This document shows, piece after piece, positions 3,200 to 63,301 of a stretch of 64,000 bases of DNA. Below the pieces are notes generated by a model that saw only the letters and a list, made by a program, of their open reading frames with translations, was not told where the DNA came from and did not search any database. The position numbers and the translations under genes are program-made. The stretch spans positions 332,752-396,751 of the forward strand of contig NZ_JAPNJX010000001.1 of NCBI RefSeq assembly GCF_026626685.1, written 5' to 3'. Numbering within the stretch: position 1 is the stretch's first letter; the number at the start of each line of letters is the position of its first letter. Source of the DNA: Nannocystis sp. SCPEA4 (GTDB taxonomy: Bacteria > Myxococcota_A > Polyangia > Nannocystales > Nannocystaceae).

Positions 3200-4951
<1,752 letters not shown>

Positions 4952-5268
4952 GGCAAGGAAATTCCTGAACGTGGTGACGCCCGTTTCCAGGACGGGCATG
5001 TCGTGCAGCAGCGGCGCGCGCGCAGAACGACGTGCATCAACCGAGCAGGGATTTCGGACTTCGCCGTCGCGATCAAGCGTCCACCGACCTGGTGCCTTCA
5101 AACCACGCCGGACGACAATTGTGGCAAATCTGCGCCCGCAGAGGCGCTGCCGGCGCCCCGCGGCTCGCTCGCTACTCTAGCAACCGAGATTCTTCGATCC
5201 GGACAACACAGGCGCGGACTCCGCCGCACCTGCGGAGACTGCCATGAATCAACTCCATCATCTGTCCT

Positions 5269-5793
5269 TCAGAACCTGTCTGAAGGACCCTGTCCACTTG
5301 TTGTCGTCACGCGCCCCCGCTGACGAACAGCGGTCAACCGCGCCGGACCGATCCCGCGCACACGCTTCAAGTCATCGACCGTGGAGTATGGTCTTCCTTC
5401 GATGATTCGCCGCGCGAGCTCGGGACCGATCCCCGGCATACTCTCGAGCTCGCTGGCCGACGCTCGATTGAGATCGACGGGCACCGCCAGCGCCTCGAGA
5501 TCGTCTCCTCGCATTCGCCCCCAGCCGAGCCCGCCAGGTCGCGGCGATCCACCTGTGCACAATGATGCACGCACGATGGCATCGCCGTGGCTCAGCGGTC
5601 CGCTCGTGCCGTCGCCGCACACGCTCGCGACGTCGCGCGGCGCCTCGTCGTCGCAGCGCAACACGCCGTCGACCTCGACGGCGAATTCGCAAGCGACCCG
5701 CACCAGCAGCTCCGGCGCCGCCGGCCTCAGCCACGCCGCCAGCGCCACCGCGAGCGCGGCGATCAGCGCGAGCCCTGCCCCGACGCGCACCAC
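5269..5793 (-). CDS. comEA: ComEA-family helix-hairpin-helix DNA-binding (competence) protein
   Basis: An N-terminal hydrophobic anchor is followed by a C-terminal helix-hairpin-helix region (LNRASASELESMPGIGPELARRIIEGRPYSTVDDLKRVRGIGPARL). Confidence 0.75.
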   Translation of the reverse strand: MVRVGAGLALIAALAVALAAWLRPAAPELLVRVACEFAVEVDGVLRCDDEAPRDVASVCGDGTSGPLSHGDAIVRASLCTGGSPRPGGLGWGRMRGDDLEALAVPVDLNRASASELESMPGIGPELARRIIEGRPYSTVDDLKRVRGIGPARLTAVRQRGRVTTTSGQGPSDRF

Positions 5794-7164: not shown

Positions 7165-7512
7165 CTAGTCTTTTCGCGTCTTGAACAGCGGCAACTGAAA
7201 CAGCGCCTCGGGCGCCCCGCCGTCACGACCGCTGCGGCGGCGCTGCGCCTCTTCCTCGAGGATCGTCTTGATCGCCCCGCGACAGCTGCCGCACCCGGTG
7301 CCCGCCTCGCAGGCGTCGCCGACATCCTCGACGCTGCGGGCCCCCTGGCGCACGCAGGCGACGACCTCGTGCTCGAAGACCGTGTTGCACTGGCACAGCA
7401 GCACCCGCACCCCTCTGGGATACCGCAGCGACCGTCGCCCGTCGACGCCCGTCCGCGAGCGCGGGCGCACGCGCGCACCGCCGCGCGCGCCGCAGGCTGA
7501 CTGTCCGGACAT
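7165..7512 (-). CDS. Bfd-like (2Fe-2S)-binding domain protein
   Basis: CQCN...C...CGSC is the cysteine pattern of bacterioferritin-associated ferredoxin. The start is uncertain: ATG at 7512 (MSGQ...) or TTG at 7521. Confidence 0.55.
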
Positions 7513-7545
7513 GTCTCTCAAGACATGGCTATTCGGACAGTGTGG
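7501..7545. repeat. CTGTCCG-GACATGTCTC-TCAAGACATGG-CTATTCGGACAG element spanning the pdxJ stop and the Bfd-like start
   Basis: Flanking inverted repeat CTGTCCG/CGGACAG. TAG (7529-7531) and ATG (7512-7510) are both embedded in it. Confidence 0.55.
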
Positions 7546-8263
7546 CGAGGTAGTCGGCGACGGCCCGCGCGAGCCCGACGAACAGCGCGTGGCTGATGAG
7601 CGCGTGGCCGATCGAGACCTCGTCGAGGTGCGGCAGGCGGCTGAACAGCGGCAGGTTGTCGAGGTCGAGATCGTGACCGGCGTTGACGCCGAGCCCGAGC
7701 GAGTGCGCCAGCTCGGCCGCGGCGGCGAACTGCGCCAGCGAGGCCTCGCCCGCGCCGGCCGCGAAGGCCCGCGCGTACGGCTCGGTGTACAGCTCGATGC
7801 GCTGCGCGCCGACGTCGGCGGCCCAGCGCACCGCGGCGGGGTCGGCGTCGATGAACAGCGAGACCCGCACCCCGAGCCTGTGCAGCCGGGCCACGATCGC
7901 CCCGAGCTCGGCGCGCGAGGTGTCGGGCGGCCACCCGGCCTGGCTCGTGATCTCGCCCGGCCGCACCGGCACGAGGGTGCACTGGTGCGGCCGCAGCTCC
8001 TCGACCATCGCCAGCAGGTCCGGCCGAGGGTCGCCCTCGATGTTGAACTCGACGCGATCGCGCAGCGGCGCCAGCTCGGCCGCGATCGCCCGCGCGTCGG
8101 CGGCCCGGATGTGGCGCTCGTCGGCCCGCGGATGCACGGTGATGCCCGGCGCGCCGGCCGCGATGATCGTACGCACCGCCTCGATCACGCTCGGGACGTC
8201 GCCGCCGCGGGCGTTGCGGAGGGTGGCGACCTTGTTGACGTTGACGCTGAGGCGGGCGGCCAT
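7529..8263 (-). CDS. pdxJ: pyridoxine 5'-phosphate synthase
   Basis: LSVNVNKVATLRNARG...HPRADERHI...GHDLDLDNL are typical PdxJ motifs. Confidence 0.9.
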   Translation of the reverse strand: MAARLSVNVNKVATLRNARGGDVPSVIEAVRTIIAAGAPGITVHPRADERHIRAADARAIAAELAPLRDRVEFNIEGDPRPDLLAMVEELRPHQCTLVPVRPGEITSQAGWPPDTSRAELGAIVARLHRLGVRVSLFIDADPAAVRWAADVGAQRIELYTEPYARAFAAGAGEASLAQFAAAAELAHSLGLGVNAGHDLDLDNLPLFSRLPHLDEVSIGHALISHALFVGLARAVADYLATLSE

Positions 8264-9909: not shown

Positions 9910-9927
9910 GGACGGACGATCGATACC

Positions 9928-10045
9928 ACAGTGTCTCTTCGGACATGTCGATCGACCCGTCTCCCGGTGTCGATGTCCATGCCCCGAAATCAAGTGTCCC
10001 TTCGGACAGCTCCATCGACCTGTCCCTCAGGTCGCTTCGCGCAAG
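9928..10045. repeat. convergent-intergenic element with two ~30-bp direct repeats (CAGTGTCTCTTCGGACATGTCGATCGACC / CAAGTGTCCCTTCGGACAGCTCCATCGACC) and a central GTGTCGATGTCCATGCC unit
   Basis: Seen directly between the FAD-oxidoreductase stop (9909) and the rarA stop (10058). Confidence 0.55.
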
Positions 10046-12705: not shown

Positions 12706-12756
12706 CAGCGGCGGAGGAACATGCCTCTCTAGACATGTTTCAGGAGACATGCCCAA
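12706..12756. repeat. CATG-unit array (GAACATGCCTCTC TAGACATGTTTC AGGAGACATGCCC AAAGAGAC) in the convergent intergenic region
   Basis: Seen directly, 30 nt downstream of the minus-strand lipoprotein stop (12789). Confidence 0.55.
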
Positions 12757-12788
12757 AGAGACACGAGGCTCGGTGTACCGACGAGGGC

Positions 12789-13841
12789 TCAGTCGACCCC
12801 GCAGTAGCGCAGCGCGCAGCTCGGCGGGGTCGGCAGGCGGTACATGATGAACGGCCCGCAGTTCTGCACGGCGATCGGGGCCTTGAAGTGACAGGTCTCG
12901 CCTTCCCAGTGGAAGCAGACCTCGCGGGCGACCACGCCGTCGGCCTCCGAGGGCTCCTGTCCGTTGAGCCAGCCGGGCGCGTGGGTCCCGCACGAGAACA
13001 TCGGCGGCGCGGTGGTCGGCATGCGCGAGCCCGCCGAGCCGACGAAGCGCGACCACTGGCCCTCGGCCGGCAGGTCGAGGTCGCACTCGACCTCCTCGAT
13101 CTGCGACGCCACGTTGCGGCCCGGCTGCGGCAGCGCCACCGCCTGCCCGCACTCGCCGGGCAGGTTCTCGGTCAGGCAGGCGTTGCAGCCGTCGCCCGCG
13201 GTCTGGTTGCCGTCGTCGCACAGCTCGCCCTCGGCCGTCTGCAGCACGTTGTCGCCGCAGCGGGGCCCGAGCGCCGCGCAGCCGGGCGCGCAGCCCTCGT
13301 AGCTGTTGTCGTTGATCTTGTCGTCGCACACCTCGGTGCCGGCGCGCACGAACCCGTCGCCGCAGGTCGCTTGCTTGCACGTCGACGGGCAGTCGTCGGT
13401 GTCGCTCGAGTTGCCGTCGTCGCACTCCTCGCCGTCCTCGACCACTCCGTTGCCGCAGTCGCTCGGCGGCTCGGTCGTGACGGTGATGGTCGTCACCGTG
13501 ATGGTCTCGGTCGGGAAGGTCGTGAAGGTCGGGTCCGTGAAAGTCGGGTCCGTGATGGTGACGGTCGGCTCGATCGTGTCGGTCGGCTCGATCGTCGTCG
13601 GCGGGTCGATCGTCGTCGGCGGATCGATCGTCGTCGGCGGCAACGTGTCGGTGACCGTCGTCGGCAATGTGTCGGTGACCGTCGTCGGCAGCGTGTCGGT
13701 GATCGTGTCGGTAAGCGTATCGGTGATGGAGGTGGAGAGCGTGTCCGTGGTGTCGACCTTGACCGCGAAGCAGCCCGCGGCGAGGTGCGCAAAAACAATC
13801 GCCCACGTCTCCAACCGCCACCGTCTACAAGCGAGTAACAT
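12789..13841 (-). CDS. secreted lipoprotein with a Thr/Asp/Pro-rich tandem-repeat linker and Myxococcus cysteine-rich repeats
   Basis: Lipobox AHLAAGC, then (TDT[LI]..) repeats of about 90 aa, then CGNGVVEDGEECDDGN...GDGCNAC repeats and a Cys-rich C-terminus. Confidence 0.7.
   Translation of the reverse strand: MLLACRRWRLETWAIVFAHLAAGCFAVKVDTTDTLSTSITDTLTDTITDTLPTTVTDTLPTTVTDTLPPTTIDPPTTIDPPTTIEPTDTIEPTVTITDPTFTDPTFTTFPTETITVTTITVTTEPPSDCGNGVVEDGEECDDGNSSDTDDCPSTCKQATCGDGFVRAGTEVCDDKINDNSYEGCAPGCAALGPRCGDNVLQTAEGELCDDGNQTAGDGCNACLTENLPGECGQAVALPQPGRNVASQIEEVECDLDLPAEGQWSRFVGSAGSRMPTTAPPMFSCGTHAPGWLNGQEPSEADGVVAREVCFHWEGETCHFKAPIAVQNCGPFIMYRLPTPPSCALRYCGVD
13490..13745. repeat. coding tandem DNA repeats (21-24-bp units GTCGGCGG(G/A)TCGATCGTC / GTGTCGGTGACCGTCGTCGGCA) giving the TDT/PTT repeats of the lipoprotein
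   Basis: Direct reading of the plus strand; the protein shows (TDTLPTTV) and (TIDPPT) repeats. Confidence 0.65.
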
Positions 13842-17531: not shown

Positions 17532-17533
17532 GC

Positions 17534-17560
17534 GCTGGCTCGCTGCTCCGGCGAGCCAGC
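17534..17560. terminator. GC hairpin just after the DUF1552 stop codon (10-bp stem GCTGGCTCGC/GCGAGCCAGC), between convergent genes
   Basis: Perfect inverted repeat seen directly. There is no U-tract, which is common at this GC content. Confidence 0.5.
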
Positions 17561-17562
17561 AC

Positions 17563-17630
17563 GTTCAGACATGCTCCAAGGAGCATGCCCTTCCGGGCAT
17601 GCTCCTTTGAACATGCCCGGGCGGACAGCT
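17563..17630. repeat. Array of alternating CATG-centred palindromic units (ACATGCTCC aa GGAGCATGCCC ttcc GGGCATGCTCC tttgaa CATGCCC) plus GGACAG
   Basis: Seen directly. Overlapping 9-11-bp inverted repeats form a zig-zag of hairpins. It belongs to a motif family found in all convergent intergenic regions here. Confidence 0.6.
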
Positions 17631-18990
17631 ACGGCTCGGCGAGCTCTTGCCGCGCGACGTCGCCGATCTGCCCGGCCAGCTCCTCGAGCCGGGCGAGGTC
17701 GGGGCCCTCGAGCATGACCCGCAGGCTGGCCTCGGTGCCGGAGTAGCGGACCAGCACGCGGCCGTCGTCGCCGAGCTCGGCCTCCGCCGCGCGCACGGCG
17801 GCGCCGAGCTGCGGCAGGAGGTCGAGCGGGACCTTGCGCGCGACCGGGATCGCGCGCAGCAGCTGCGGGTAGCGCGTCATCACCGACGCGAGGTCGGCCA
17901 GCGCGCGGCCGCTGCGCTGCATGATCGCCAGCACCTGCAGCGCGGCCACCATGCCGTCGCCGGTGGTCCCGTGGTCGAGGAAGACGACGTGCCCCGACTG
18001 CTCGCCGCCGAGGTTGTACGCGCCCTGGACCATCGCCTCGACCACGTAGCGATCGCCGACGGGGGTGCGCACGACGCCGATCCCGTGCCCGGCGAGGCAG
18101 CGCGCCAGGCCCATGTTGGACATCACCGTCGCCACCACCGCGGCCCCGCGCAGGGCCTGGCGCGCGTGCATGTCGAGGGCGCAGATCGCCAGGATCGCGT
18201 CGCCGTCGACGACCGCGCCGCGCGCGTCGCTGAAGACCACGCGGTCGGCGTCGCCGTCGAGGGCGATGCCGAGGTCGGCCCCGTGCTCGACCACCGCGCG
18301 GCACATCGCCTGCGGGTGCACCGCGCCGCAGGCGTCGTTGATGTTGACGCCGTCGGGGCCCGCGCCGATCGCTATCACCGTCGCGCCGAGCTCGCGCAGG
18401 ACCGTGGGCGCGACCTTGTAGGCGGCCCCGTGGGCGCAGTCGACGACGATCTTGAGGCCGTCGAGCTCGAGCGACGACGGGAAGCTGTGCTTGAGGTGCG
18501 TCAGGTAGCGGCCGGCCGCGTCGTCGATGCGCGCCGCCTTGCCGATGTCGCGCCCGCGCGCGACCCGTTCGTCGAGCGCGCCCGGCTCCATCAGCTGCTC
18601 GAGGTGCGCCTCGACATCGTCGGGCAGCTTGAAGCCGTCGGCCGCGAACAGCTTGATGCCATTGTCGGCGAACGGGTTGTGACTGGCGGAGATGACGACG
18701 CCGGCGTCGGCGCGCATCGAGCGGGTGATGTAGGCGATGCCCGGGGTCGGCAGCGGCCCGACGAGCAGCACCTCGGCCCCCATGGCGCACACGCCGGCCG
18801 CCAGCGCCGTCTCGAACATGTAGCCGGACAGCCGCGTGTCCTTGCCGATGACGACGCTGCCGCGCCGACCGAAGTGCGCCGCGACGGCCATGCCCAGCCG
18901 CAACGCGATATCAGGGGTCATCGGCGGGACACCCGCGGGTCCGCGGATCCCGTCGGTGCCGAACAACCGACGCTCGTTCGCCATGCGCAC
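17629..18990 (-). CDS. glmM: phosphoglucosamine mutase
   Basis: [10 protein letters not shown]..., the phosphoserine loop SASHNP and full-length alpha-D-phosphohexomutase domains. Confidence 0.9.
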
Positions 18991-25319: not shown

Positions 25320-25883
25320 TTAGGACGGGTACTTGGCGTTGTAGCGCTTGACGAGCTCGGTCGTGATGTCGAGTCCGGGCTCGACGAACAGCACGGTCGA
25401 GTCGTCGCGGATCAGCACCAGGTCGACGTTCTTCTCGGCGGCCAGCTTGTCGATGATCGTCTGGCAGTTCTTGTAGATGTCCTCGAGGACACGCGACTCC
25501 TGCTGCGTGAGCTCCTGCTGCATGGTCATGTAGATCTGCTGCATCTCCATGTACTCCTTCTGCAGCGCCTCCTCCGCGGCGGCGAGCTTCTCGCCTTGCA
25601 GGCTCTTCAGCTTGCCGGTGTCGGCCTCGAGCTTCTTGCGCTTCTGCTCGAGCTTCTCCTGCTTGGCCTTGGAGCTGTCCTCGAGCTTCTTGCGCGCGGC
25701 CTGGCCCTGCTTGGTGTCGGCGAGGACCTTTTGCATGTCGACGACGGCGACGCCGCGGACCTGCGGAATGGTGGCCTGAGCGGGCGTGACGAAGTTGGGG
25801 GCGAGGCCGGCGCCGCCCGCGAAGGCGAGCGCGACGGCGGCGGCGGAGAGCAGACGACCGAGACGACGCTGGGGGGTGGGCAT
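25320..25883 (-). CDS. skp: OmpH/Skp-family periplasmic chaperone
   Basis: Signal peptide, then a coiled-coil segment rich in K, E and Q, as in OmpH. Start taken at the ATG with an AAGGA RBS (MPTPQRRLG...); the ORF begins at 25910. Confidence 0.7.
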   Translation of the reverse strand: MPTPQRRLGRLLSAAAVALAFAGGAGLAPNFVTPAQATIPQVRGVAVVDMQKVLADTKQGQAARKKLEDSSKAKQEKLEQKRKKLEADTGKLKSLQGEKLAAAEEALQKEYMEMQQIYMTMQQELTQQESRVLEDIYKNCQTIIDKLAAEKNVDLVLIRDDSTVLFVEPGLDITTELVKRYNAKYPS

Positions 25884-30157: not shown

Positions 30158-31993
30158 TCACTCGCCGCGCCGGAGCCCGTCGACAGGACGCAGCGCCGCC
30201 GCGGCACGCGCGGGGAGCACGCTGGCCAGGCCCACGAGCACGAGCGCGGCGGCAGCGACGAGCGCGACCTCCCACGGATCGACGCGCAGCGGCAGCGCTT
30301 CGAGGGTGAACGCACTGCTGCGCAGGGGGATGCCGTGCTCGCCGAACCACGCGCAGAGGGCCAGACCCGCGGCGATCCCACCGACACAACCGACGCCGCC
30401 GACGATTATTCCCTCGAGCGCGAAGATTCCGGCGATCAGGCGATCACGGGCCCCCATGGCCTTCAGGATGGCGATCTCGGCCGACCGTTCCATGACGCTC
30501 ATCATGTTGGTGGCGAGGATCCCGAACGCGGCGACGAGGATCACGAACAGCAGCGCGACGAACATCGCGACCTTCTCGAGGAACATCGCGGAGAACAGAC
30601 CATGGTGGATCTGGCGCCAGTCCTCGACCACCAGCTCCGGGTCGGCGACGGCGACGACGGCGGCCTTGGCGGCGGCGAGCGCCTCGGGGTCGCCGAGACG
30701 GACGGCGATCGAGGTGACCGCGCCCGGCGCCCGCAGGAACGCCTGGGCGTCGGTCAGCGGGACGTAGGCGTAGTCGCGATCGTCGTCGTAGACGCCGGTG
30801 GCGTAGACGCCGGCGACCCGGGCCTGCAGGACGCCGGGCACCAGCCCCGCGGGGGTCATGCGGCCCTCCGGGGTGATGAGCTGCACCGGGTCGCCGGCGC
30901 TGACGCTGAGCTCGGCCGCGAGCTCGATGCCCAGCAGCACCGGCACGGTCCGCGGCTCGTCCGCCGCCGGACTCTCGGGCTCGGCCGCCTCCGCGGGCTC
31001 CTCGGCCGGCGGCTCCTCCTCGACCACGGGCGGCCGGGCAGCGGGGATCTTGCCCTCGGCGCGCAGCCGCGGGATCTCCTGCTCCGGATCTTCCCAGCCG
31101 CCGCCGTCGTCCTCGTCGTCCGCGACGGGTGGCGGCGACACCACCACCGGGGCGCGCGCAGGCGGGATGCTCCCCTCGGCGCGCAGCCGCGGGATCTCCT
31201 GCTCCGGATCCTCCCAGCCGCCGTCGTCGTCCCCGTCGTCGCCGGCCGGCGGATCGACATGGTCTTCGGAACCTGTCTCTTCAGACCTGCCTGGGAGGAC
31301 ATCCGATTCGCGGGGCTCGGGCTCGGGCTCGATCGCGTCCGGCAGCGTGGGGAACGGGCGCTGCGGCAGCAGCGACGGGTCGAGGAAGGCGGTGTAGTCG
31401 CCCTCGACGACCTCGCCGGGCAGGCCCGAGGCGCGCGCGTGCAGGACGGGATCGACGCCGACGAGGTTGACGCCGGCGCGGCCGAAGCCGCTGCGGATCA
31501 TGATCGGGCCGGCGAGCTCGGGGCTGACGCCGACGACCTCGGGCACCGCCTCGACGCGAGCCACCAGCGGCTCGGGGGTCACGATCTCGGAGCCCGGCGG
31601 CGGCGAGATCCGCAGGTGCGCGCGGTGTCCGAGCAAGCGCCGTTGCAGGTCGCCCTCGAGGCCGTCGAGCAGGCTCAGGACCAACACCAGCGCGGCGCAG
31701 CCCTGGGCCACCGAGTAGCCGGTGATCGCCACGAGGAGCGTGAAGCCGCGGATCGTCGCGGCGAAGCTGAGCACGAGCAGGCCGATGAACAGGCCCAAGC
31801 TGCCGAGCACGTAGGCGAGCGTCGGCAGCGGCATCTCGTCGTCGATGAGCGAGACCGGCTGGCCGCGCGACCACAGCACCGCGGCCGCGCCGGCGATCAC
31901 GAGGACGAGCGCGCAGGCGCCGAGCGGGCGAGCCCAGCGCGCTGGCTGGCGGGCTCGCAGGTGCCGCCAGGCCACCCGCAGCGACAGGCTCAT
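30158..31993 (-). CDS. lolE: LolC/LolE-family lipoprotein-release permease (FtsX-like) with an expanded acidic/Pro-rich periplasmic insert
   Basis: N-terminal [12 protein letters not shown] with TM1, a C-terminal FtsX 3-TM bundle ([16 protein letters not shown]...), and the insert [19 protein letters not shown](S/K)IP repeated twice. The start was verified as ATG at 31993, 4 nt into lolC. Confidence 0.8.
31045..31270. repeat. Near-identical ~118-bp tandem duplication inside lolE, encoding the two ...[25 protein letters not shown]... segments
   Basis: The unit CTCGGCGCGCAGCCGCGGGATCTCCTGCTCCGGATC(T/C)TCCCAGCCGCCG... occurs at about 31055 and about 31173 with only a few mismatches. Confidence 0.7.
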
Positions 31994-34041
31994 CGCTCCG
32001 CCTGCCGGAGGGCGTCGACCGGGCGCATGCGCGAGGCGATCCGCGCCGGGTAGAGGCTCGACAGCCAGACGATGACGAGCGACGACACGCCGACCAGGAC
32101 GACCTCGAACCCGTCGATGAAGACGGGCAGCTGCTCGAAGCTCTGCAGCGTGCCGCCGAGCGGCAGGCCGAAACGGTCGAGGAGGCCGCACAGGCCGATG
32201 CCGGTGACGATGCCGAGGATCCCGCCGAGGATCCCGAGGCACAGGCCCTCGGAGATGAAGATCCGCTGGATGAGCGCGTCGGTGCAGCCCATCGTCTTGA
32301 GGATCGCTATCTCCTTCGACTTCTCGAGCACGCTCATGAGGTTGGAGCCGAGGATCCCGAACGAGGCGACCAGGATCACGCACAGCAGCGCGACGAACAC
32401 GGCGATCTTCTCGAGCGCCATCGCCGAGAACAGGCTGCGGTTCAGCTCCTGCCAGTCCTGGACGATGAGGTCGCTGCGCCCTGCGGCGTCGACCGCGTCC
32501 TGAACCGCCTGCTTGCGCACGTCGAGCTGCTCGATGTCGTCGACCTTGACCTCGAGGCCGGTGACGCGGTCGCCGGCGCGCAGGAACGCCTGGGCGACCG
32601 GCAGCGAGGCGTACACGAGCCAGCGGTCGTAGTCGTAGTGGTCGGCGTCGAACACCCCGGCGACGCGCACGGCCATGACGCCGGGGATCCGGCCGGCCGG
32701 AGTCATGCGCCCGATCGGGGTGATCAGCTGGACCTGATCGCCGGTGCGGGCAGCCAGCTCCTTGGCCTTCTCGCTGCCGATCAAGAGGCCGTCGACCAGC
32801 GCGCGGCTCGACCCCGGTTCCTCGGTGTCGACGTCGACCGCGGGCTCCGGCGGCGGCGGCGGCGTCGCCTCGCTCGGCTTCGGCGGCGGCAACTTGCCGG
32901 ACGCGCGCAGCTTGCCGATCTCGACCTCCGGGTCCTCCCAGCCCTCGTCCTCGTCGCCGCTGGCGACCACGCCGAACGGGCTGCGCGGGATGGTCGGGAT
33001 CGCGGTGGCCGGCGAGGTCGGGACGGCGGGCGGCTTGTCCTCGATCACCGGCTTGGCCGCCGGGATCACGCCCTTCTTTCGCAGCGCCGGGATCTCGACC
33101 TCGGGGTCCTCCCAGCCGCCGTCGGGGTCGTCGTCGACGGCCTGGCTCGGGATGTCCTCGGGGACATGGTCTTCAGAACCTGTCGGAAGAGGCAGGCCCG
33201 TGGCGCCGCCGCCCTTGTCGTCGGGGGCCGCGTCCGGCTCGTCGCTCTTCGGCGGCTCGACCGGCGTGATGTCGAAGCCGAACTCCGACTCGGGGATCCG
33301 CTCGGGGTGCGAGAGGAACTCGTAGTCGCCCTCGCGCATGATGTCGGGCAGGTTCGACACGCTGCGGTGCAGCTCGGGGTCGATGCCGAGGAGGATCCCG
33401 CCCTGGCGCTGGAAGCCGCTGCGGACCATCACCTCGCCCTGCAGGTAGGGGCTGGCGCCGAGGATCCCGGGTTTGTCGGCGATCGCGTGGGCGAGGTCGC
33501 GGTAGTCGGCGAACGGGCGCCCGTCGGCCGCGCTGACGCGGATGTGCGCGCGCTGGCCGAGGATCTTGTCGCGCAGCTCGAGCTCGAGGCCGGTCATCAG
33601 GCTGAGCACGACGACCAGCGCCATGCAGCCGAGCATGACGCTGACGGTGATGACGGTGGCCAGCAGCGTGAACACCAGCGACAGCACGGCGCCGAGCAGC
33701 AGGCCCGCGCCGAGCAACAGGGTGATCGCGCCGAGGACCCCGAAGTACGCCTGCGCCGGCGGCGGCAGGTGCAACGTCGGGTCGAAGCCGAGACCGACGA
33801 GGCTCGAGTCGAGCGCGACGCGCTCGGGCAGGCTCGGATCGACCGGCGCGAAGCCGTAGAGGGCGTACAGCACGAAGCCGCCGCCGACGATCAGGAGATA
33901 GACGGCGAGGCCGACGGCCGGCCAGGCCCAGCTCGGCGGGCGATCGCCGGCCCGCAGGTGCCGCCACGCGATCTGCCAGTGGAGGCTCGGGGGAGCCTCC
34001 GCCCTGGGCGGCGCGGCGGGGCGGGCGGCGTTGCGACTCAC
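31990..34041 (-). CDS. lolC: LolC/LolE-family lipoprotein-release permease with an expanded periplasmic insert
   Basis: HWQIAWRHLRAG N-terminus and a C-terminal FtsX domain. The insert carries (D/E)GGWEDPEVEI..L(R/K)..G.IP motifs twice. The GTG start at 34041 overlaps the prfB stop. Confidence 0.8.
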   Translation of the reverse strand: MSRNAARPAAPPRAEAPPSLHWQIAWRHLRAGDRPPSWAWPAVGLAVYLLIVGGGFVLYALYGFAPVDPSLPERVALDSSLVGLGFDPTLHLPPPAQAYFGVLGAITLLLGAGLLLGAVLSLVFTLLATVITVSVMLGCMALVVVLSLMTGLELELRDKILGQRAHIRVSAADGRPFADYRDLAHAIADKPGILGASPYLQGEVMVRSGFQRQGGILLGIDPELHRSVSNLPDIMREGDYEFLSHPERIPESEFGFDITPVEPPKSDEPDAAPDDKGGGATGLPLPTGSEDHVPEDIPSQAVDDDPDGGWEDPEVEIPALRKKGVIPAAKPVIEDKPPAVPTSPATAIPTIPRSPFGVVASGDEDEGWEDPEVEIGKLRASGKLPPPKPSEATPPPPPEPAVDVDTEEPGSSRALVDGLLIGSEKAKELAARTGDQVQLITPIGRMTPAGRIPGVMAVRVAGVFDADHYDYDRWLVYASLPVAQAFLRAGDRVTGLEVKVDDIEQLDVRKQAVQDAVDAAGRSDLIVQDWQELNRSLFSAMALEKIAVFVALLCVILVASFGILGSNLMSVLEKSKEIAILKTMGCTDALIQRIFISEGLCLGILGGILGIVTGIGLCGLLDRFGLPLGGTLQSFEQLPVFIDGFEVVLVGVSSLVIVWLSSLYPARIASRMRPVDALRQAER

Positions 34042-47728: not shown

Positions 47729-47731
47729 AAC

Positions 47732-48142
47732 TCAGGAAACCCTCCCCACCGCGGCGCGCATGGCGGTCGCCAGGGCAGCGAGACGTTGGACGCGCGGCGC
47801 AGCGGCTGTGCCGCTGCGGTTCAGGAGATCGATCATGCCCGCGAGCACCTCGCCGTGCGCGCTCCACAGCGCGGCGGGGTCCACTGGCGGCATCTTGCGG
47901 GCGAACGCGCGGGCGAAGCCGCCGCGGCGGGCTGCGCGCTCCATGCAGGCGCGCGCCGGGCACACGTAAGCCGAGCGCCCGGAACTGGCCCGAAGGCCAG
48001 GGCGCTTTGCACATGTCCGAACAGACTGGTCCGGAAGAATCTGCTCCTTGTCGGCGTCGAGCTCGTACAGCTTCGAACGCAGGAGCTCCGCCTGGGGGCG
48101 GACGGCGCGGCAGCCCACGCAAGTGCGCATCGGCGCGTGCAT
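47732..48142 (-). CDS. ylxR: YlxR/DUF448-family putative RNA-binding protein (nusA-infB operon)
   Basis: The RTCVGCR motif and its position between nusA and infB. The start is ambiguous among 48172, 48142 and 48130. Confidence 0.65.
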   Translation of the reverse strand: MHAPMRTCVGCRAVRPQAELLRSKLYELDADKEQILPDQSVRTCAKRPGLRASSGRSAYVCPARACMERAARRGGFARAFARKMPPVDPAALWSAHGEVLAGMIDLLNRSGTAAAPRVQRLAALATAMRAAVGRVS

Positions 48143-48143
48143 G

Positions 48144-52845: not shown

Positions 52846-53901
52846 GTGGCCACCGAACACCTCCTCACCCGCGGGCTCGACACCATCCGGATCGTCCATG
52901 ACGACTGCGACCTCGTCACCGGCGAGGGCGAGCATGCCGTCACCCAGACCTTCGACGACGTCGACGACGCCCGCTCGCACCTCGAGTACGTCCTGAAGCG
53001 GATGCGCCGCGACGGCTACGGCCTCACCTCGCGCCCGATCAGCCTCGAGGACGGCCAGCGCGACATCGCCGACGGCCTGTTCGAGTGGGACCCCGAGCGC
53101 CGCCGCCTCAAGTGCGTGTTCGTCGAGGACGACGGCGTCCGCGTCCGCTGCGAGCTGCTGCCCGACGTCGCCGAAGCGCGCGGGGCCGCCGGTCTGCACT
53201 TCGTGTGCGACCACGCGATCCCCGGCCCCGCCCTGTCGGCCGCGCTCGCCGGGCGGCCGCTGCCGCAGATCCGCAGCTTCATCTTCGACACCCCGTTCCA
53301 GACGATCACCCGCCAGTACGCCAACACCCCCGGGCGGCTCGACCTCGTCTTCCACGGCCTGCCCGCCCTCGAGTCCGCCTACGTCACCGGTGCGCCCGAG
53401 CTGCGCCGCTGCGGCCACACCCGCCTGAAGCACCTGCACCTGCTCGGCGATCCGCTGCCACCGGCCACCCTGGCCGGCCTCGGCGACAGCGACTTCCCCG
53501 CGCTCGAGCGCCTGGTGCTGTGCCTCAGCCGCGACGCCGAGCCCGCGCCGGCGGTCGACGTCGTGCGAGCGCTGCGAAGCCTGCGCGCGCCGGCGCTGCG
53601 CCACGTCTACCTGTCCGGCAGCGACGACCTCGTGGCCCTGATCGACGCGCTCTGCGATCGCCCCCTGCCCGCCTCGTGGACGGTCCTCTCGCTCGAGGGC
53701 GTCCTGCGCGACGAGGACGACCTGCTCGCCGTCCTCGAGGACCGCGCCCCCGTCCTCGGCCGGCTCCAGCGCCTCGCCCTCCCGCTCGCCGACGACCTGT
53801 CCGACGACGCCGCCGACCGCGTCCTCGCCCTCCTGCCCGCCGTCGTCGACCGCGACGAGCTGCCCGACCAGCTGCTGCCCAGCGTCTACGAGGACTGGTG
53901 A
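52846..53901 (+). CDS. hypothetical protein with C-terminal leucine-rich-repeat-like region
   Basis: GTG start. L..L.L..L-type repeats in residues 200-330. No recognisable catalytic motifs. Confidence 0.5.
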   Translation: MATEHLLTRGLDTIRIVHDDCDLVTGEGEHAVTQTFDDVDDARSHLEYVLKRMRRDGYGLTSRPISLEDGQRDIADGLFEWDPERRRLKCVFVEDDGVRVRCELLPDVAEARGAAGLHFVCDHAIPGPALSAALAGRPLPQIRSFIFDTPFQTITRQYANTPGRLDLVFHGLPALESAYVTGAPELRRCGHTRLKHLHLLGDPLPPATLAGLGDSDFPALERLVLCLSRDAEPAPAVDVVRALRSLRAPALRHVYLSGSDDLVALIDALCDRPLPASWTVLSLEGVLRDEDDLLAVLEDRAPVLGRLQRLALPLADDLSDDAADRVLALLPAVVDRDELPDQLLPSVYEDW

Positions 53902-53905
53902 TCTG

Positions 53906-53986
53906 CCTGTCCTCCAGGACATTTTCAAAAGGGCATGCCGTAACGAGCATGTCCTTTTGAGCATCGCTCTCTGAACATGTCCTGAA
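53906..53986. repeat. CATG-palindrome array (GGACATTTTC aaaaGGGCATGCC gtaacgaGCATGTCCtttt GAGCATCGC tctctGAACATGTCC) between convergent genes
   Basis: Seen directly. AAAAGG(G/A)CATG ... CATGTCCTTTT is a near-perfect inverted repeat. Confidence 0.6.
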
Positions 53987-54008
53987 AGATAGCGTCCCCG
54001 CGCTCGCC

Positions 54009-57869: not shown

Positions 57870-59384
57870 ATGGGCCCCGCGTGGCCGTCGCACGTGCGCG
57901 ATCCGTCGGGGGTGAACGCCTCGCCCATCCGGCCCGACCGCGACGGACCTCAGTGGCTGCTCCGCCCCGACTCGTCCTCACGGACCTCACGGAGCTCACG
58001 GAGTAGTGGCGCCGGATCGCCTCCCTCGCCCGCGCGGCGGCTCGCGCGAGCCGTCTTCGCCGCCGTCGCCGCGCTGTGTCTGCCCACGCTCGTGGCCTGC
58101 GCCCCGATCGTGCGTCCGCCTGCCTTCGTGGGCGCGCGCGACCTCGTCACCGACGCCTCGCTGCTCGGCCCCTTCGACGGTCAGGTCGTCGACGCCGCCA
58201 CCAGCGAGCCGATCGCCGAGGCCACCGTCGTCGCCGTCTGGTCGTACGACCGCGGCGACGGCTTCATCGGCCCGTGGGGCGCGGAAACGTCCAGCGTCAC
58301 CACCGACGCCGCCGGCCGCTACCGGATCCCTCCGGCCAGGCTCAGCGTGCGCGGCTCGACCGCGCGGCTCGTCGACGCCTACCTCATCGTCTACAAGCGC
58401 GGCTACGCCGGCTACCGCTCCGACGCCGTCCCCACCGGCGGCCCCCGCTCCGACTTCACCGTGCGACACAACCGCGTCGAGCTGCGCAAGTGGCAGAACA
58501 GCGACTCGCACGCCGATCATCTGTTGTTCCTGGCGCCGCCGCGGCCGCTGCACAAGGCTGTGCGCTGGGAGGCCGACCTCGCCAACCTCGACCTGTTCCG
58601 CGCTCTCGGCGGCGCCGGCGGTCCAGTCGTCGCGGTCGAAGAGGAGGAGGGCGGCAAGCCGGCCGGGCCGGTGGTCGCCGAGGTGCTCGACGCCACCGCC
58701 CTGCTCACCCCCGACGAGGTCCGCCAGCGCACCGGCTACACCGAGGCCTTCGAGGTCAAGGACCTCACCGACCTCAAGCGCACCGGCTTCTACCACGGTG
58801 TCCACCTGCAGGCGGTCCACAGCGACGAGCGCCACGACCTCGCCTTGCGGGTGTGGAGCGCCCCGCCCGGCGGCATGGACCCGGTCGCGGCGACGATCCA
58901 GGAGACCTTCGGCAAGGTCAAGCCGGCCGGCGACATCACCCCCGAGACGTGGAGCACCACCGCCGACGGCGTGCACGCGATCGGCTTCGTCGACCGCGAG
59001 CAGAAGATCGGCGTGCTGCTGACCTGCGGCGACCAGCAGTGCCACGACCTCGACAGCGCGCTGATCCTCGCCAAGCACGTCTACCGCAACCTCGACCGCC
59101 TCAAGCAGGTACCCGACCCGGCCGCGACCGCGCCCGCCGCGACCACGCCGGCCGGGACCACGCCGGCCCCCTCGGGTGTCCCGGGCGGCGCCGTCCCGGG
59201 CAAGTCCGCCGCCCCGAGCGGCAGCGGCGGCGCGACCAACCCCGCCGGCGTCGCCAGTCCCAAGGGACAGGGCAATTCGACCATGTCCCCAGAGTCAGGT
59301 CCAACCACCAGTCCCAAGGACCAGGGCGCTTCGACCATGTCCCCAGAGTCAGGCCAGCCGGCCGGGAAGGGCCGGCGCCCGTGA
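57870..59384 (+). CDS. lipoprotein with carboxypeptidase-regulatory-like beta domain and a C-terminal SPKGQ/SPKDQ repeat tail
   Basis: Lipobox AALCLPTLVAC preceded by RRLARAV. Domain GQVVDAATSEPIAEATVVAVWSYDRGDG. Tail ...ASPKGQGNSTMSPESGPTTSPKDQGASTMSPESGQ. The start is uncertain: ATG at 57870 gives an unusually long leader. Confidence 0.5.
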   Translation: MGPAWPSHVRDPSGVNASPIRPDRDGPQWLLRPDSSSRTSRSSRSSGAGSPPSPARRLARAVFAAVAALCLPTLVACAPIVRPPAFVGARDLVTDASLLGPFDGQVVDAATSEPIAEATVVAVWSYDRGDGFIGPWGAETSSVTTDAAGRYRIPPARLSVRGSTARLVDAYLIVYKRGYAGYRSDAVPTGGPRSDFTVRHNRVELRKWQNSDSHADHLLFLAPPRPLHKAVRWEADLANLDLFRALGGAGGPVVAVEEEEGGKPAGPVVAEVLDATALLTPDEVRQRTGYTEAFEVKDLTDLKRTGFYHGVHLQAVHSDERHDLALRVWSAPPGGMDPVAATIQETFGKVKPAGDITPETWSTTADGVHAIGFVDREQKIGVLLTCGDQQCHDLDSALILAKHVYRNLDRLKQVPDPAATAPAATTPAGTTPAPSGVPGGAVPGKSAAPSGSGGATNPAGVASPKGQGNSTMSPESGPTTSPKDQGASTMSPESGQPAGKGRRP

Positions 59385-61513
59385 CCCGCCCGCGCTCGTG
59401 GCTCCGCCGGGTCGGCCGCGCCCTCGGCCTCGGACTCGCCCTCTCCCTCGCGCTCCCGGCCGCGCCGGCGGGCGCGTGGGACGCCCGCGCCACCCACCTC
59501 GGCATGGTCGACCGCGCCCTGCTGGAGAGCGCGCTGCACCTGCGCTGGATGGCCCAGAGCGAACTCCAGCGCGGCCTCTTCACCCCCCTGCGCGTCGATC
59601 CCAGGCGGCTCAGCGCCCCCGAGCGGCGCATGCTCACCGCCGCCCTGCAGCACGGCGGCCTCCAGGCGCTCGGCGGCCCCGGCTCCTGCCCCGGCCTCGG
59701 CGCCCCGATCGAGACCCAGAAGTACTGCGTCGAAGGCGACGTGTGGGAGCTGCCGGCGCTGCAGTGGCTGCAGGTCGGCGTGCTCGCCGAGCTGGTGCCC
59801 TCGGCCCGCGCCGTCCACCACTTCGTCGACCGCGACGACCCGCTCGCGCCGAACTTCGCCGACCCGCAGCCGCGCCCCGGCCTGGTGCGCCTGCGCCAGG
59901 TCCGCCACAACGGCGGCTCGGCCGCAGCCCTGGCCACGCAGACAGGTTTCTCGGGACAGGGCCCTTCGGTCATCTCGTTCCTGCGCGACGACACCGATCC
60001 GCTGGCCCCGCCGCACATGTGGCGCCACCTCGAGCTCGCCTCCACCCTGCCCGAGGCGGACGCGCGGGCGCACCACCTCGCGCTGGCGCTGGTCGGCCTC
60101 GGCGCCCTGCTGCACGTCGTCCAGGACCTCGCCGTCCCCGCCCACGCGCGCGGCGACGTCACCGGCTTCTTCAGCCCGCTGTCGCCGAGCCCCGGCGATC
60201 GCGGCCTGCCGTTTGCGGAACTGGCGCGTCTGGCGTTCGGTCGCAGCGCCCTGCCCGGCCGCCCCGCCCAGGACGAGGTCGCCCGCGCCCGCGGGATCCC
60301 GGTCGCCGGCTCGCTGGCCGAGCACCTGTTCGGCGGCGCCCCGGCCAGCAAGGACCCTGGCGCATTGGTCATGCCCGAAGGGACAGGTTACGAGGGCCTG
60401 GCGGTGTTCACCGCGCGCCGGTTCCTGTCCGAGGCCAGCGTCCCCGCGCCGCGCCACCTCGACGACGACCTCACGCCCGAGGCCGCCGCCGCCGAGCTGC
60501 TGCAGGCCAGCCGCCTCGACCCGGTCGAGCTCCAGGGCGCCCGCATGCACCCGTGGCCGGCCGCGCGCGGCTACATCCAGAGCGGCACCGGCCGCCCGCT
60601 GGCCGCCTTCGACACCGACGACGACGGCCGCGTCCGCCCGTACATCGACGAGGCCGTCTACCGCGAGCAGTTCGTCCACCTGGCGCCCCGCGCGGTCGAG
60701 GTCACGCGCTCGCTGCTCGACTGGCTGTGGCCGACCTGGCCCGAGCTCACCTTCGACGCCACCGGCGGCAACCTCGACTTCGTGGTCCCGCCCGGCCTCG
60801 TCGACGCCGTCGTCCTCGTGCTGCGCCAGGACGCCGCCGGCGCGCGCACGATCGTCCGCAAGGTCACCCTTCGCCCCGGCGAGCGCAACCGCGTCTCCGG
60901 GATCCCCACCGGCCTCGGCGAAGGCGAGCGCGCCGTCGTCGTCCTCCGCGCCCGCCGGCCCAGCGGCGAGCCGCTCCTGCTCGAGCACGTGCTCGGCAGC
61001 GAGAGCAAGGTCTTCCCCGTCGTCCCCGCGCCCTACGTCGCGCCCGAGCCCGAGCTCGCCGCGCCCGAGACGGCCGAGGAACCCGCGCCCGAGCCCGAGC
61101 CGGAGCCCGAGCCCGAGCCCGAGCCCGAGCTGGCGCCGCCGACCAGTCCCAAGGGACAGCCCGCCAAGCCCCAGCAAGGCCAGGGCAAGACCAGGGGTCA
61201 GCCCGTCGAGCCCGTCACCAGTCCCAAGGGACAGCCCGCCGCCACCAGTCCCAAGGGACAGCCAGGCAAGCCCCAGCAAGGCCAGCCCGCGGCCGGCACC
61301 ACTCCCGCGACCAGTCCCAAGGGACAACCCGCTGCCAAGCCCCAGCAGGGCCCATCCACGACCAGTCCCAAGGGACAGCCCGGCGATGCGACCCCCGCCC
61401 CGGGTCCCAAGGGACAGCCCGCCGCCAAGCCCCAGCAGGGCCAGCCCCCTGCCGGCACGAACCCCGTCAGCAGTCCCAAGGGACCGCCCCCGAGCGGCAA
61501 GAACCGCGGCTGA
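59381..61513 (+). CDS. large secreted protein with a possible zinc-dependent PLC/P1-nuclease-like N-terminal domain and a tail of at least seven TSPKGQP(A)AKPQQGQ repeats
   Basis: Signal peptide ...LALPAAPAGA then W-D-A-R-A-T-H (the Trp1/His pattern of the S1-P1 nuclease/PLC fold), with further H..D motifs (HHFVDRDD, HVVQDLAVPAHARGD). An EPEP-rich linker is followed by repeated DNA units CCAGTCCCAAGGGACAGCC. The GTG start overlaps the upstream stop. Confidence 0.55.
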   Translation: MTRPRSWLRRVGRALGLGLALSLALPAAPAGAWDARATHLGMVDRALLESALHLRWMAQSELQRGLFTPLRVDPRRLSAPERRMLTAALQHGGLQALGGPGSCPGLGAPIETQKYCVEGDVWELPALQWLQVGVLAELVPSARAVHHFVDRDDPLAPNFADPQPRPGLVRLRQVRHNGGSAAALATQTGFSGQGPSVISFLRDDTDPLAPPHMWRHLELASTLPEADARAHHLALALVGLGALLHVVQDLAVPAHARGDVTGFFSPLSPSPGDRGLPFAELARLAFGRSALPGRPAQDEVARARGIPVAGSLAEHLFGGAPASKDPGALVMPEGTGYEGLAVFTARRFLSEASVPAPRHLDDDLTPEAAAAELLQASRLDPVELQGARMHPWPAARGYIQSGTGRPLAAFDTDDDGRVRPYIDEAVYREQFVHLAPRAVEVTRSLLDWLWPTWPELTFDATGGNLDFVVPPGLVDAVVLVLRQDAAGARTIVRKVTLRPGERNRVSGIPTGLGEGERAVVVLRARRPSGEPLLLEHVLGSESKVFPVVPAPYVAPEPELAAPETAEEPAPEPEPEPEPEPEPELAPPTSPKGQPAKPQQGQGKTRGQPVEPVTSPKGQPAATSPKGQPGKPQQGQPAAGTTPATSPKGQPAAKPQQGPSTTSPKGQPGDATPAPGPKGQPAAKPQQGQPPAGTNPVSSPKGPPPSGKNRG
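61141..61500 (+). repeat. coding tandem repeats (SPKGQP units; DNA core CCAGTCCCAAGGGACAGCC, at least 8 copies)
   Basis: Direct reading. The same unit appears twice at the 3' end of the preceding gene (59255-59345). Confidence 0.7.
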
Positions 61514-61814: not shown

Positions 61815-63209
61815 GTGACAGCCGCCACCCCGCGCGGACCGTCCACATCAGCCCGCCGGCGGTCCGCGTCAGGCGTCCAGGCGGCTGTGCTACACCTCCA
61901 CGCCGTGTCGACCGAGCGTGATGACGACGGCCTGATGTTGCCGCCCCAGGACGAGCGTCGCACCCTGCTCGACCAGCTCGTCGCGCTCGTCAAGGCGCGC
62001 GGTCCGGCGCCGCTGCTCGTCGCGCCGCTGCTCGAGCCGAACCCGCGCTTCTTCCCCGATCGCTGGCAGGCCGGCGACGGCAGCCTGCGCCGGCTCGTGC
62101 GGCGCCTGCTCGGCTACGCCGGCCTGGGTCAGCTGCGCGTCGAGGTCGCCATCTACGACGCCGACCCGGCGCGACGCGGCGAGGTCCTCGGCAAGCCCAG
62201 CTCCACGCGCGGCCAGGACCTCGTCGTCTGGCTCGCCGGCATCGAGCGCGACCTCGTCAAGATCGGCGCCGAGGGTTCGGCCATGGTCGACCCGCACACC
62301 ATCGTCGCCGCCGCCGCCCGCGTGGTCGCCCACGTCTACCGCCGACACTTCGGCCTCACCACCGGCGACGCCTTCGATCCGCGCATCGACCTCACCGGCG
62401 TCTACCTCGGCTTCGGCGTCCTCACGGCCGACGCCGCCCTGCGCTACACCGTCCGCACCGCCGCCGGCCCGATGCAGACCCGGCGCACCCCCTCGCGGCT
62501 CGGCGTCCTCTCGCCGCAGTCGCTGTGCTTTCTCCTGGCCGCGCAGCTGCACGCGCGCGCCCTCCCGCGGGCCGAGCGGCAGCGGATCGGCAAGCTCCTC
62601 CAGGCCAACCAGGCCGCCTTTCTGCGCCACGCCTACGCCGCCCTCGACCGCGCCGAGCCGCCGGTCGCCCAGCAGCTCGGCGTCCCGCCGCAGGAGCAGT
62701 GGCCACCCGCGCTCGACCTCGCCGCGCTCACCGTCCCGTTCACCGACGACCCCGATGCTGTCCCCGAGGCCAGGCGCGACGAGGACCCCGGCATCGCCGG
62801 CATCAACGCCGGCAAGCCCGTGTTCCGCGTCGAGCGCAGCATGGCCGCGCGCCTCGGTCGCACCCTCGGCATGGGCGCGCTCATGCTCGGCGGCGTGGTA
62901 GCCGGCATGAAGGGCGGCCTCCAGCTCGACGCCGGCACGATCCCCATGATCGCCCTCGGCCTCGGCGTCACTGGCCTCGTCCTCGGCCGCTTCCTCCGCG
63001 AGTCGCGCTGCTCCGAGCCGCGCTGCGGCGCCCCGCTGGCCCCCGGCGACCGCGTCTGCCCGCGCTGCCGCGGCGAGGTCGTCGGCGTCATCCACCACCC
63101 GCGCGAGCGCCTCGCCGCCGAGGAGGCCTGGCGCCGCGCCCACCCCGAGGCCGGCGAGCCCGACCCATCCGAGTCGACCCCGGCCGCCGCCGCGCCGCCT
63201 GTCTCTTGA
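61815..63209 (+). CDS. hypothetical protein with two C-terminal transmembrane helices and a CxxC...CxxC zinc ribbon
   Basis: GTG start. Transmembrane helices GMGALMLGGVVAGM and IPMIALGLGVTGLVLGRFL, then CSEPRCG...CPRCRG. Confidence 0.5.
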   Translation: MTAATPRGPSTSARRRSASGVQAAVLHLHAVSTERDDDGLMLPPQDERRTLLDQLVALVKARGPAPLLVAPLLEPNPRFFPDRWQAGDGSLRRLVRRLLGYAGLGQLRVEVAIYDADPARRGEVLGKPSSTRGQDLVVWLAGIERDLVKIGAEGSAMVDPHTIVAAAARVVAHVYRRHFGLTTGDAFDPRIDLTGVYLGFGVLTADAALRYTVRTAAGPMQTRRTPSRLGVLSPQSLCFLLAAQLHARALPRAERQRIGKLLQANQAAFLRHAYAALDRAEPPVAQQLGVPPQEQWPPALDLAALTVPFTDDPDAVPEARRDEDPGIAGINAGKPVFRVERSMAARLGRTLGMGALMLGGVVAGMKGGLQLDAGTIPMIALGLGVTGLVLGRFLRESRCSEPRCGAPLAPGDRVCPRCRGEVVGVIHHPRERLAAEEAWRRAHPEAGEPDPSESTPAAAAPPVS

Positions 63210-63300
63210 GGCAGACCCGAGGCTGGTCCTCGTATGTCTCTCATCTCATGTCCATTGCGACATGCTCGTTCGAACATGCCCTATCGCGCATGTTCGAAGG
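63199..63300. repeat. CATG-palindrome array between convergent genes, including a perfect 10-bp inverted repeat TCGAACATGC(n8)GCATGTTCGA (63270-63297)
   Basis: Seen directly. Other units in the same array are CATGTCC and GACATGCTCG. Confidence 0.6.
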
Positions 63301-63301
63301 C

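Follow-up and report, generated by a model that had tools for sequence, protein, structure and literature searches.

Periodic arrays of a 14-bp dyad behind stop codons in Nannocystis

Palindromic arrays in the window

The window, by which we mean the whole 64-kb stretch of Nannocystis DNA that was analysed, contains five spacers between convergent genes, and all of them (5/5) harbor palindromic elements of the kind described here. The element under study lies between a gene encoding a DUF1552 protein and glmM. It is built from a short unit, the 14-bp dyad TGYCC-N4-GGRCA, and where two such dyads abut, a CATG tetranucleotide forms the joint between them. The sites of the window that belong to this family, or that have been considered for it, are as follows.

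17565-17634, no strand assigned: focal array in the spacer between the DUF1552 gene (plus) and glmM (minus), with CATG joints at 17570, 17584, 17598 and 17612, four abutting dyads at 17572-17627 (TGCTC-caag-GAGCA, TGCCC-ttcc-GGGCA, TGCTC-cttt-GAACA and TGCCC-gggc-GGACA) and an inward-facing terminal half-unit, GGACAG
12715-12770, no strand assigned: array of three CATG units and one CACG unit in the spacer between DUF423 (plus) and a D8C/DUF4215 protein gene (minus)
53901-53998, no strand assigned: array of six to seven units with the cores CCTG, CATT, CATG, CATG, CATC, CATG and TAGC; PWM score 65.8 bits
63228-63311, no strand assigned: array of five to six units (TATG, four CATG, CACG) between the gene at 61815-63209 (plus) and an HTTM gene (minus)
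9925-10035, no strand assigned: irregular, decayed set of dyads in the spacer between an FAD oxidoreductase gene (plus) and MgsA/RarA (minus)
7497-7546, no strand assigned: two to three dyads at the 16-nt junction from pdxJ to Fer2_BFD, both genes on the minus strand
5256-5297, minus strand: three one-sided half-sites of the GGACAG type with a 14-bp period, holding a 9-bp hairpin, between aspartokinase and the next minus-strand gene
25478-25491, no strand assigned: isolated exact dyad TGTCC-tcga-GGACA inside an OmpH-like gene, identical in an N. pusilla-like genome (L001)
33153, 43536 and 60372: further intragenic single dyads

Arrays in the five convergent spacers had already been reported in a first-pass annotation of the sequence, and they were indeed present where it had placed them; the convergent setting of each was established by Pfam matches together with a codon-usage gene caller. 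The focal array ends 1 nt short of the glmM stop codon (17629-17631, minus strand), the array at 12715-12770 is located 18 bp from the minus-strand stop, that at 53901-53998 extends from the plus-strand gene's stop codon to 10 bp before the epimerase stop, and that at 63228-63311 overlaps the HTTM stop by 10 bp. Within the set at 9925-10035 (GTGTC-tcttc-GGACA, TGTCC-cttc-GGACA, CTGTCC...), indels break the register. Related elements had also been assigned to two tandem junctions. The one at 7497-7546 is real and is kept in N. bainbridge (CTGTCC-gttc-GGACATGTCC-ctca-cGACATGTC), its dyads overlapping the pdxJ stop codon (7529-7531) as well as the following gene's start codon (CAT, 7510-7512). 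The site at 5256-5297, however, is weaker, with one-sided half-sites and a PWM score of 17.7 bits that falls inside the shuffle range, and its membership in the dyad family is uncertain.

Throughout the window, RRCATGYY occurs 31 times compared to 10.8±3.1 expected, and the dyad TGYCC-N4-GGRCA 8 times compared to 0.32 expected. CATG tetranucleotides follow each other at distances of 14 bp (ten times), 28 bp (six times) and 42 bp (four times), and three CATGs at 14-bp spacing were found five times as opposed to 0.00 expected (zero in 100 shuffles). When printed in 14-bp register, the arrays comprise three to seven units with the consensus nnGGR-CATG-YCCnn; this strict register of the CATG cores is a feature that the first-pass annotation had missed. 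Tandem Repeats Finder reported no array (0) in the window because the units are too divergent, and Rfam, applied to the whole window at gathering thresholds, gave no match. Head-to-tail copies that are alike across the whole unit, as in a minisatellite, were not observed: the spacers are unrelated between units.

A stretch at 47979-48048, within the unusually long (415 bp) nusA-infB spacer (47729-48143), is weakly array-like (one CATG, 27.7 bits) and was left out of the family. Two matches of the PWM array finder, at 31253 and 33146, were rejected as false positives in coding DNA. They represent a nucleotide motif, CATGGTCTTCRGAACCTGTC, which is common to two adjacent paralogous FtsX/MacB-type permease genes (30158-32383 and 31990-34041, whose longest ORFs overlap by ~390 bp) and mimics an array in the PWM scan. 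Because of such false positives in coding DNA, exact-dyad spacing scans were relied on instead.

Directly 3' of the DUF1552 stop codon, a perfect 12-bp GC-rich hairpin (GCTGGCTCGCTG...GCGAGCCAGC, 17533-17561) was observed, which is separate from the dyad array of the same spacer and may be the ordinary terminator of this plus-strand gene. The orthologous glmM spacers carry a different GC hairpin (GGCCCGCG...CGCGGGCC). Direct repeats of ~60 bp (59257-59353) and 27 bp (61212-61263), which have AGTCCCAAGGGACAG in common, sit inside the ORFs 58092-59384 and 59381-61513, for which Pfam matches are absent or weak; these repeats hold GGGACAGGG and GACCATGTCC motifs resembling dyad half-sites. At the left edge of the window, an ORF contains a 105-bp tandem repeat of 3.5 copies (240-588) and looks like a DUF4215-kind cysteine-rich repeat protein, the same kind being encoded at 3200-5101 and 12789-13841.

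Architecture of the unit and position relative to genes

The unit had initially been described as a decamer centred on CATG. This phasing is off by half a unit, and the family is better described by the dyad. In a scan over half-site spacings, k=4 gave 136 occurrences of TGYCC-Nk-GGRCA, against 0-5 for each other k up to 17, and k=0 gave 94 of GGRCA-Nk-TGYCC. At either side of a CATG run, the outermost units retain the inward half alone (xxTG-YCC on the left, GGR-CAxx on the right), and the array ends are complete dyads. Outside the CATG arrays, 92 exact dyads were identified, often CCTGTCC-N4-GGACAGG and devoid of any CATG; about half of them read CC...GG, and CATG is often missing at one or both flanks, with half-sites and spacing kept. 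The half-unit array ends, the spacings of k=4 and k=0 and the 92 non-array dyads together demonstrate that the unit is TGYCC-N4-GGRCA. Such dyads occur either singly, in which case they extend to 7-bp stems (CC...GG or CA...TG), or packed head-to-tail with zero gap, giving rise to a CATG at each joint and to the strict 14-bp period. The alternating orientation of neighbouring units that had been proposed holds statistically (42 neighbours vs 27 expected).

A census of gene junctions, based on our own gene calls in 450 kb of Nannocystis DNA, identified an array at 47 of 65 convergent junctions (72%), at 34 of 206 tandem junctions (17%) and at a single one of 59 divergent junctions (2%). These junction types hold 4.4, 0.91 and 0.06 arrays per kb of spacer, respectively, and all divergent spacer, 17.8 kb in total, yielded one array only; hardly any arrays are situated upstream of genes. 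The array-free convergent junctions mostly lack the length for an array or contain dyads that are isolated or irregular. At tandem junctions, the arrays are located at a median distance of 16 bp from the upstream stop codon and 183 bp from the next start; arrays are usually found within ~20 bp of a stop codon and often start at it or overlap with it. The earlier proposal that these short palindromic units of 3' intergenic spacers form a single, diverging family is supported.

The density of dyads is ~10-fold greater in non-coding than in coding DNA. Within genes, exact dyads are nevertheless 20-fold enriched, with 33 in 377 kb of coding DNA compared to 1.6 expected, and they are encountered anywhere along the gene and in all frames (6, 12 and 16 in frames 0, 1 and 2). 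As a 14-bp insertion shifts the reading frame, these intragenic single dyads cannot be insertions. True arrays also occur in-frame within protein linkers. In the small subunit of methylmalonyl-CoA mutase, an array encodes a peptide, VLSQAPWPNVHALKSMSEVQ. All six aligned Nannocystis orthologues contain this peptide, three more distant homologues (54-72% identity) have it in recognisable form, and it is missing from still more distant ones. The length of this protein varies from 664 to 847 aa between species, and the linker around VLSQAPWPNVHALKSMSEVQ is variable; two hypervariable low-complexity insertions were observed in the protein (L069 6433-7998), the second of which contains the peptide. 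Within this ORF, there would be no selection for a terminator, but a site acting at the DNA level, or a drive, is conceivable.

Distribution and turnover across species

Over 21 kb, the window is 91-92% identical at the DNA level to N. pusilla and N. bainbridge, and its GlmM is 94% identical to that of N. pusilla and 92% to that of N. bainbridge, so that the window belongs to a further species of the genus. The orthologous glmM spacers of both species harbor five-unit arrays in unchanged register, so that an array abuts the glmM stop codon in three species including that of the window. The GlmM of the window (17629-18990) has 453 aa, +2 aa as compared to 451 in the orthologs, and its stop codon is displaced by 6 nt into the array's terminal half-unit. 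In the DUF423 spacer, the number of CATG units per array is 3 in the window and 4 and 6 in the orthologous spacers. The spacer between MgsA and the oxidoreductase is 148 bp long in the window; in N. bainbridge (L002), it measures 49 bp and accommodates a three-dyad array. In the same spacer of the N. pusilla-like genome (L001 18840-19098), eight tandem ~33-bp copies were observed, each with one CCTGTCC-N4-GGACAG dyad.

About nine orthologous loci were compared, including pairs other than those above, and all of them are occupied in each species examined; one 14-bp indel was noted in these other pairs. Recent tandem duplications of 14, 28, 33 and ~95 bp were recognised within arrays. Among 21 in-register orthologous unit pairs, identity amounts to 92% in the core, 72% at positions ±3-5 and 43% in the spacers, and the coding DNA adjoining the compared arrays is 91-94% identical. 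Array position, register and half-sites are kept, and the 4-bp spacers and the number of units turn over quickly in 14-bp steps. The difference between core and spacer identity indicates that locus, register and half-sites are retained and that the filler is exchanged at a rate beyond that of point mutation, and the half-sites appear to be under purifying selection.

To determine the range of the family, we rely on a scan of 185,579 species, one genome each, for four CATGs at 14-bp spacing, in which genome counts are lower bounds. Of the 120 blocks listed, 43 come from at least seven Nannocystis genomes. The GGR/YCC flanks match at 76% of positions in Nannocystis compared to 36% in the other listed matches, and the listed matches outside Nannocystis are due to chance or represent perfect tandem repeats of the ordinary kind. 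In related Nannocystaceae with a GlmM of 69-79% identity, no array was detected in 83 kb, and the convergent spacers of these relatives are merely 12-43 bp long. Three dyads were found in 117 kb of relatives' DNA, one of them exactly between two convergent stops. One lineage of the Nannocystaceae (L127) is intermediate and may have a weaker 'dialect'. Judged from these sequences, the dyad family appears to be Nannocystis-specific, with the motif nearly missing from related Nannocystaceae. In lineage L127, we also observed a 310-bp spacer 3' of a Ro60/TROVE gene (4656-4967) in which a tRNA-like stretch, GGGGCGGTAGCTCAGCGGTAGAGCAC, is accompanied by repeated GAATGCC(G/T)G...ACT(A/C)CAT segments; this spacer could be a Y-RNA/tRNA-like module.

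The first-pass annotation had left room for the arrays being no more frequent than expected from composition, or absent from close relatives. They are, however, vastly enriched in one genus, and the spacers of N. pusilla and N. bainbridge retain them. The density in Nannocystis is ~1 array per 8-13 kb, which by extrapolation amounts to ~1,000-1,500 arrays per genome of 11-13 Mb. In the full-text literature on palindromic intergenic repeats of myxobacteria or Nannocystis, no description of the dyad family was found, and it is apparently new to the literature.

Possible functions of the dyad arrays

Several findings suggest an element that acts in the transcript. Transcripts that run into an array could fold into tandem or nested hairpins, the same for either strand given the palindromic units, and these might end transcription in the absence of a U-tract or hinder 3' exonucleases. 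Such hairpins would amount to a bidirectional terminator or to a stabiliser, the latter being a role that REP has for mRNA. Arrays abut stop codons, occupy 72% of the convergent junctions and fold far better than shuffles, with z of -3 to -7 on both strands. Adjacent units are complementary through the spacer at 6.46 of 10 positions vs 5.45±0.18, with a tendency towards one such pair per array, and this excess would fit hairpins, as would the alternating orientation, the 7-bp stems of isolated dyads and the single dyad that a relative bears between two convergent stops. In addition, canonical U-tract terminators are present in 14 kb of the window at chance level (6 vs 3.2±1.4 in shuffles), so that something else must end the transcripts. 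The arrays resemble bidirectional intrinsic terminators in that a GC-rich dyad is positioned between two stops and provides the same hairpin for both transcripts, and the focal hairpin GGAGCATGCCC-ttcc-GGGCATGCTCC is terminator-like in being flanked by A-rich and T-rich triplets.

However, the canonical bidirectional intrinsic terminator, which had been offered as one option, does not fit, as the arrays possess no U-tract; accordingly, a hairpin-plus-T-run scan of the window from 5 to 19 kb (U-tract defined as 5 or more in 8) reported none of them. The arrays further differ from such terminators by a stem sequence that is the same genome-wide, an invariant loop length and gap-free copies, and hairpins would need neither an identical stem throughout the genome nor an invariant 4-nt loop nor zero-gap abutment. 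At the variable Y/R stem position, no covariation was detected among isolated dyads (Fisher p=0.45), and Watson-Crick pairing at this position in arrays is 0.33-0.40 as compared to ~0.41 for random unit pairs. Stem positions 3-5 are paired within arrays in a third to 60% of cases, only about half, and in 41-56% for random unit pairs. On the sense strand of junctions transcribed one way, U·G (34) and C·A (35) showed no bias and hence no preference for G·U, and the loops revealed no enrichment of UUCG or GNRA, no strand bias and no preferred tetraloop. The compensatory changes or the match to a curated model that would mark a structured RNA were not found. Moreover, arrays are conserved within an ORF and across a start codon, and the 20-fold enrichment of single dyads in coding DNA would be unexpected for a terminator but normal for a DNA-binding site. 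With these observations weighed, we regard an RNA-level element as a possible but doubtful explanation.

The rigid geometry, together with half-sites that are conserved without covariation, argues for sequence-specific, dyad-symmetric recognition rather than for a plain RNA terminator, and each scenario requires a recogniser of half-sites with dyad symmetry and fixed geometry. Among the options raised in the first-pass annotation, the factor-binding dyad is the one that the internal statistics of the sequence seem to favour. Fixed half-sites and spacing, strict register and free spacers, as characteristic of operator arrays, are all present. Similar to MetJ met-boxes, omega heptads and ParR/TubR iterons, two to seven short, gap-free dyad or repeat units follow each other in strict register, and sequence, not pairing, is conserved. 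Those arrays are located in promoters or at one centromere per replicon, whereas the Nannocystis arrays reside behind stops at about a thousand loci, and we know of no 14-bp period described for any of these families.

We tentatively favour a dimeric DNA-binding protein that would sit side by side on the dyads, the arrays serving as roadblock, insulator or topological element at gene ends; both the protein and the function are predicted from sequence. Such a sequence-specific dimer would read the dyad as double-stranded DNA, with one dimer per 14 bp and neighbours rotated by ~120 degrees and touching each other, and an array would nucleate a short cooperative protein block at the end of the gene. 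Its likeliest job would be to stop or insulate transcription and the accompanying supercoiling between neighbouring, especially convergent, units. A role of this kind, halting or insulating transcription and supercoiling between adjacent units, has been proposed for the BIME arrays of E. coli. Transcript hairpins of the same sequence may add 3'-end stability as a secondary effect.

A number of points speak against the dimer model. RNA elements are classically located at 3' ends, and the arrays do fold well; extended complementarity of adjacent units and alternating orientation are not predicted by pure binding sites. The arrays in the linker of the mutase ORF and at the pdxJ operon junction would be roadblocks if binding were tight, and a dimer spacing of 14 bp is sterically demanding for common helix-turn-helix regulators. 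Nor do array neighbourhoods point to a candidate binding protein: a search beside array-rich loci or rare promoter-side dyads for a RAYT-like or DNA-binding gene revealed ordinary genes only. It might further be speculated, although this more far-reaching version seems rather unlikely, that a dedicated protein polymerises on the gap-free 14-bp dyads behind stops and provides a roadblock or insulator which terminates transcription, or restrains its supercoiling, at about a thousand gene ends, thereby replacing the U-tract terminators that this genome lacks. This would be a bacterial factor-and-site termination system with a logic analogous to that of mTERF and Reb1/TTF-I.

A likeness to REP/BIME elements had also been pointed out. 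REPs are extragenic and frequent between convergent genes; gyrase, IHF and Pol I bind to them, and roles in attenuation and in the stabilisation of mRNA have been considered (PMC1525189). The likeness holds with respect to many extragenic copies, convergent preference and alternating clusters, all of which are found here: as in the REP/BIME elements of enterobacteria and pseudomonads, BIME-2 arrays in particular, short palindromes are present in hundreds to thousands of extragenic copies, prefer convergent spacers, form alternating clusters with fixed linkers, vary in copy number between orthologs and have a lineage-specific sequence. It does not extend to the unit, which in REP/BIME is an imperfect palindrome of 20-40 nt as opposed to a 14-bp dyad whose stem of 5-7 bp encloses a loop of 4 nt. 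The GTAG/GTGG 5' foot of REPs is missing in Nannocystis, where GTAG or CTAC lies within 25 bp of just 7 of 67 arrays and does not appear in the flank profile. In further contrast to REP/BIME, the dyads abut with zero gap, only a 10-position consensus, in place of high overall identity, is common to the copies and singles are enriched inside genes. REPs also have a cognate RAYT gene flanked by repeats, and none was seen among the 16 array- or dyad-flanking proteins of Nannocystis that were compared with Pfam. The family is REP/BIME-like in behaviour, not a member of the REPs.

Self-propagation without host function, either REP/REPIN-like or driven by slippage, is unlikely. Dyads would be copied in 14- or 28-bp steps, or spread by a dyad-recognising enzyme, and would persist where insertions are harmless, namely at gene 3' ends and in protein linkers. 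This would account for the recent tandem duplications within arrays, for orthologs that differ in unit number, for a spacer identity (43%) that implies replacement of units rather than point mutation, and for the confinement to one genus; REPs, too, favour convergent spacers (PMC1525189). The in-frame arrays in ORF linkers are reminiscent of Rickettsia palindromic elements (RPEs), likewise palindromic repeats in-frame in tolerant linkers and translated in different frames, but RPEs are mobile elements of 100-150 bp, whereas the in-ORF copies of Nannocystis are arrays of 14-bp units. On the other hand, the occupation of all compared orthologous junctions leaves no presence/absence polymorphism, and intact cores amid randomised spacers require selection or continuous drive at each locus. 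Arrays in tandem spacers hug the upstream stop instead of occupying free DNA, divergent spacer is nearly devoid of them (one in 17.8 kb), and the intragenic singles, at 14 bp, would be frameshifts if they were insertions. Finally, a Pfam search of 16 array- or dyad-flanking proteins, drawn from ~450 kb of the 11-13-Mb genomes, identified no Y1 (RAYT-type) transposase.

A dyad preferred by a DNA-uptake or recombination machine might accumulate genome-wide, with inverted pairs at gene ends, as do DUS in Neisseria and USS in Haemophilus and other Pasteurellaceae. The over-representation in spacers and in coding DNA in all frames, which characterises DUS/USS, is found for the dyad, and the lineage specificity with a possible weaker 'dialect' in one relative and the conserved cores with free flanks would be in line with this idea. 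Known uptake signals, however, are asymmetric 9-12-mers with variable pair spacing, and the dyad is palindromic and rigidly spaced, forms periodic, gap-free arrays and has a ~10-fold greater density in non-coding DNA with strong polarity towards stops. No uptake specificity is known for it and, to our knowledge, sequence-preferring competence has not been described for Nannocystis, so that we consider such a drive improbable. A CATG methylation target, also suggested earlier, is hardly credible, nor is a restriction target or an origin of the palindromes by chance in AT-richer spacers. Within arrays, no tetranucleotide is better conserved than CATG, but it was rejected as a methylation site since the terminal units and many of the 92 non-array dyads lack a flanking CATG with half-sites and spacing kept. 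CATG is not depleted elsewhere (220 in 64 kb vs ~170 expected, an estimate from base composition), shuffles never reproduce the arrays and orthologous conservation excludes chance.

Little is understood of how very GC-rich bacteria close their transcription units when U-tract terminators are lacking, and here one genus fills most of its convergent spacers with a rigid periodic element of conserved sequence which is kept across species while the filler turns over. If a dimeric protein reads the dyads, as we tentatively favour, a DNA duplex or RNA of three to four dyads would be a sharply defined bait for this reader, with about a thousand natural sites. The arrays may also serve to recognise Nannocystis contigs in metagenomes, as a signature diagnostic of the genus, and as candidate terminator or insulator parts for the engineering of myxobacterial natural-product producers, and within Nannocystis itself proteins receive in-frame linker insertions from them.
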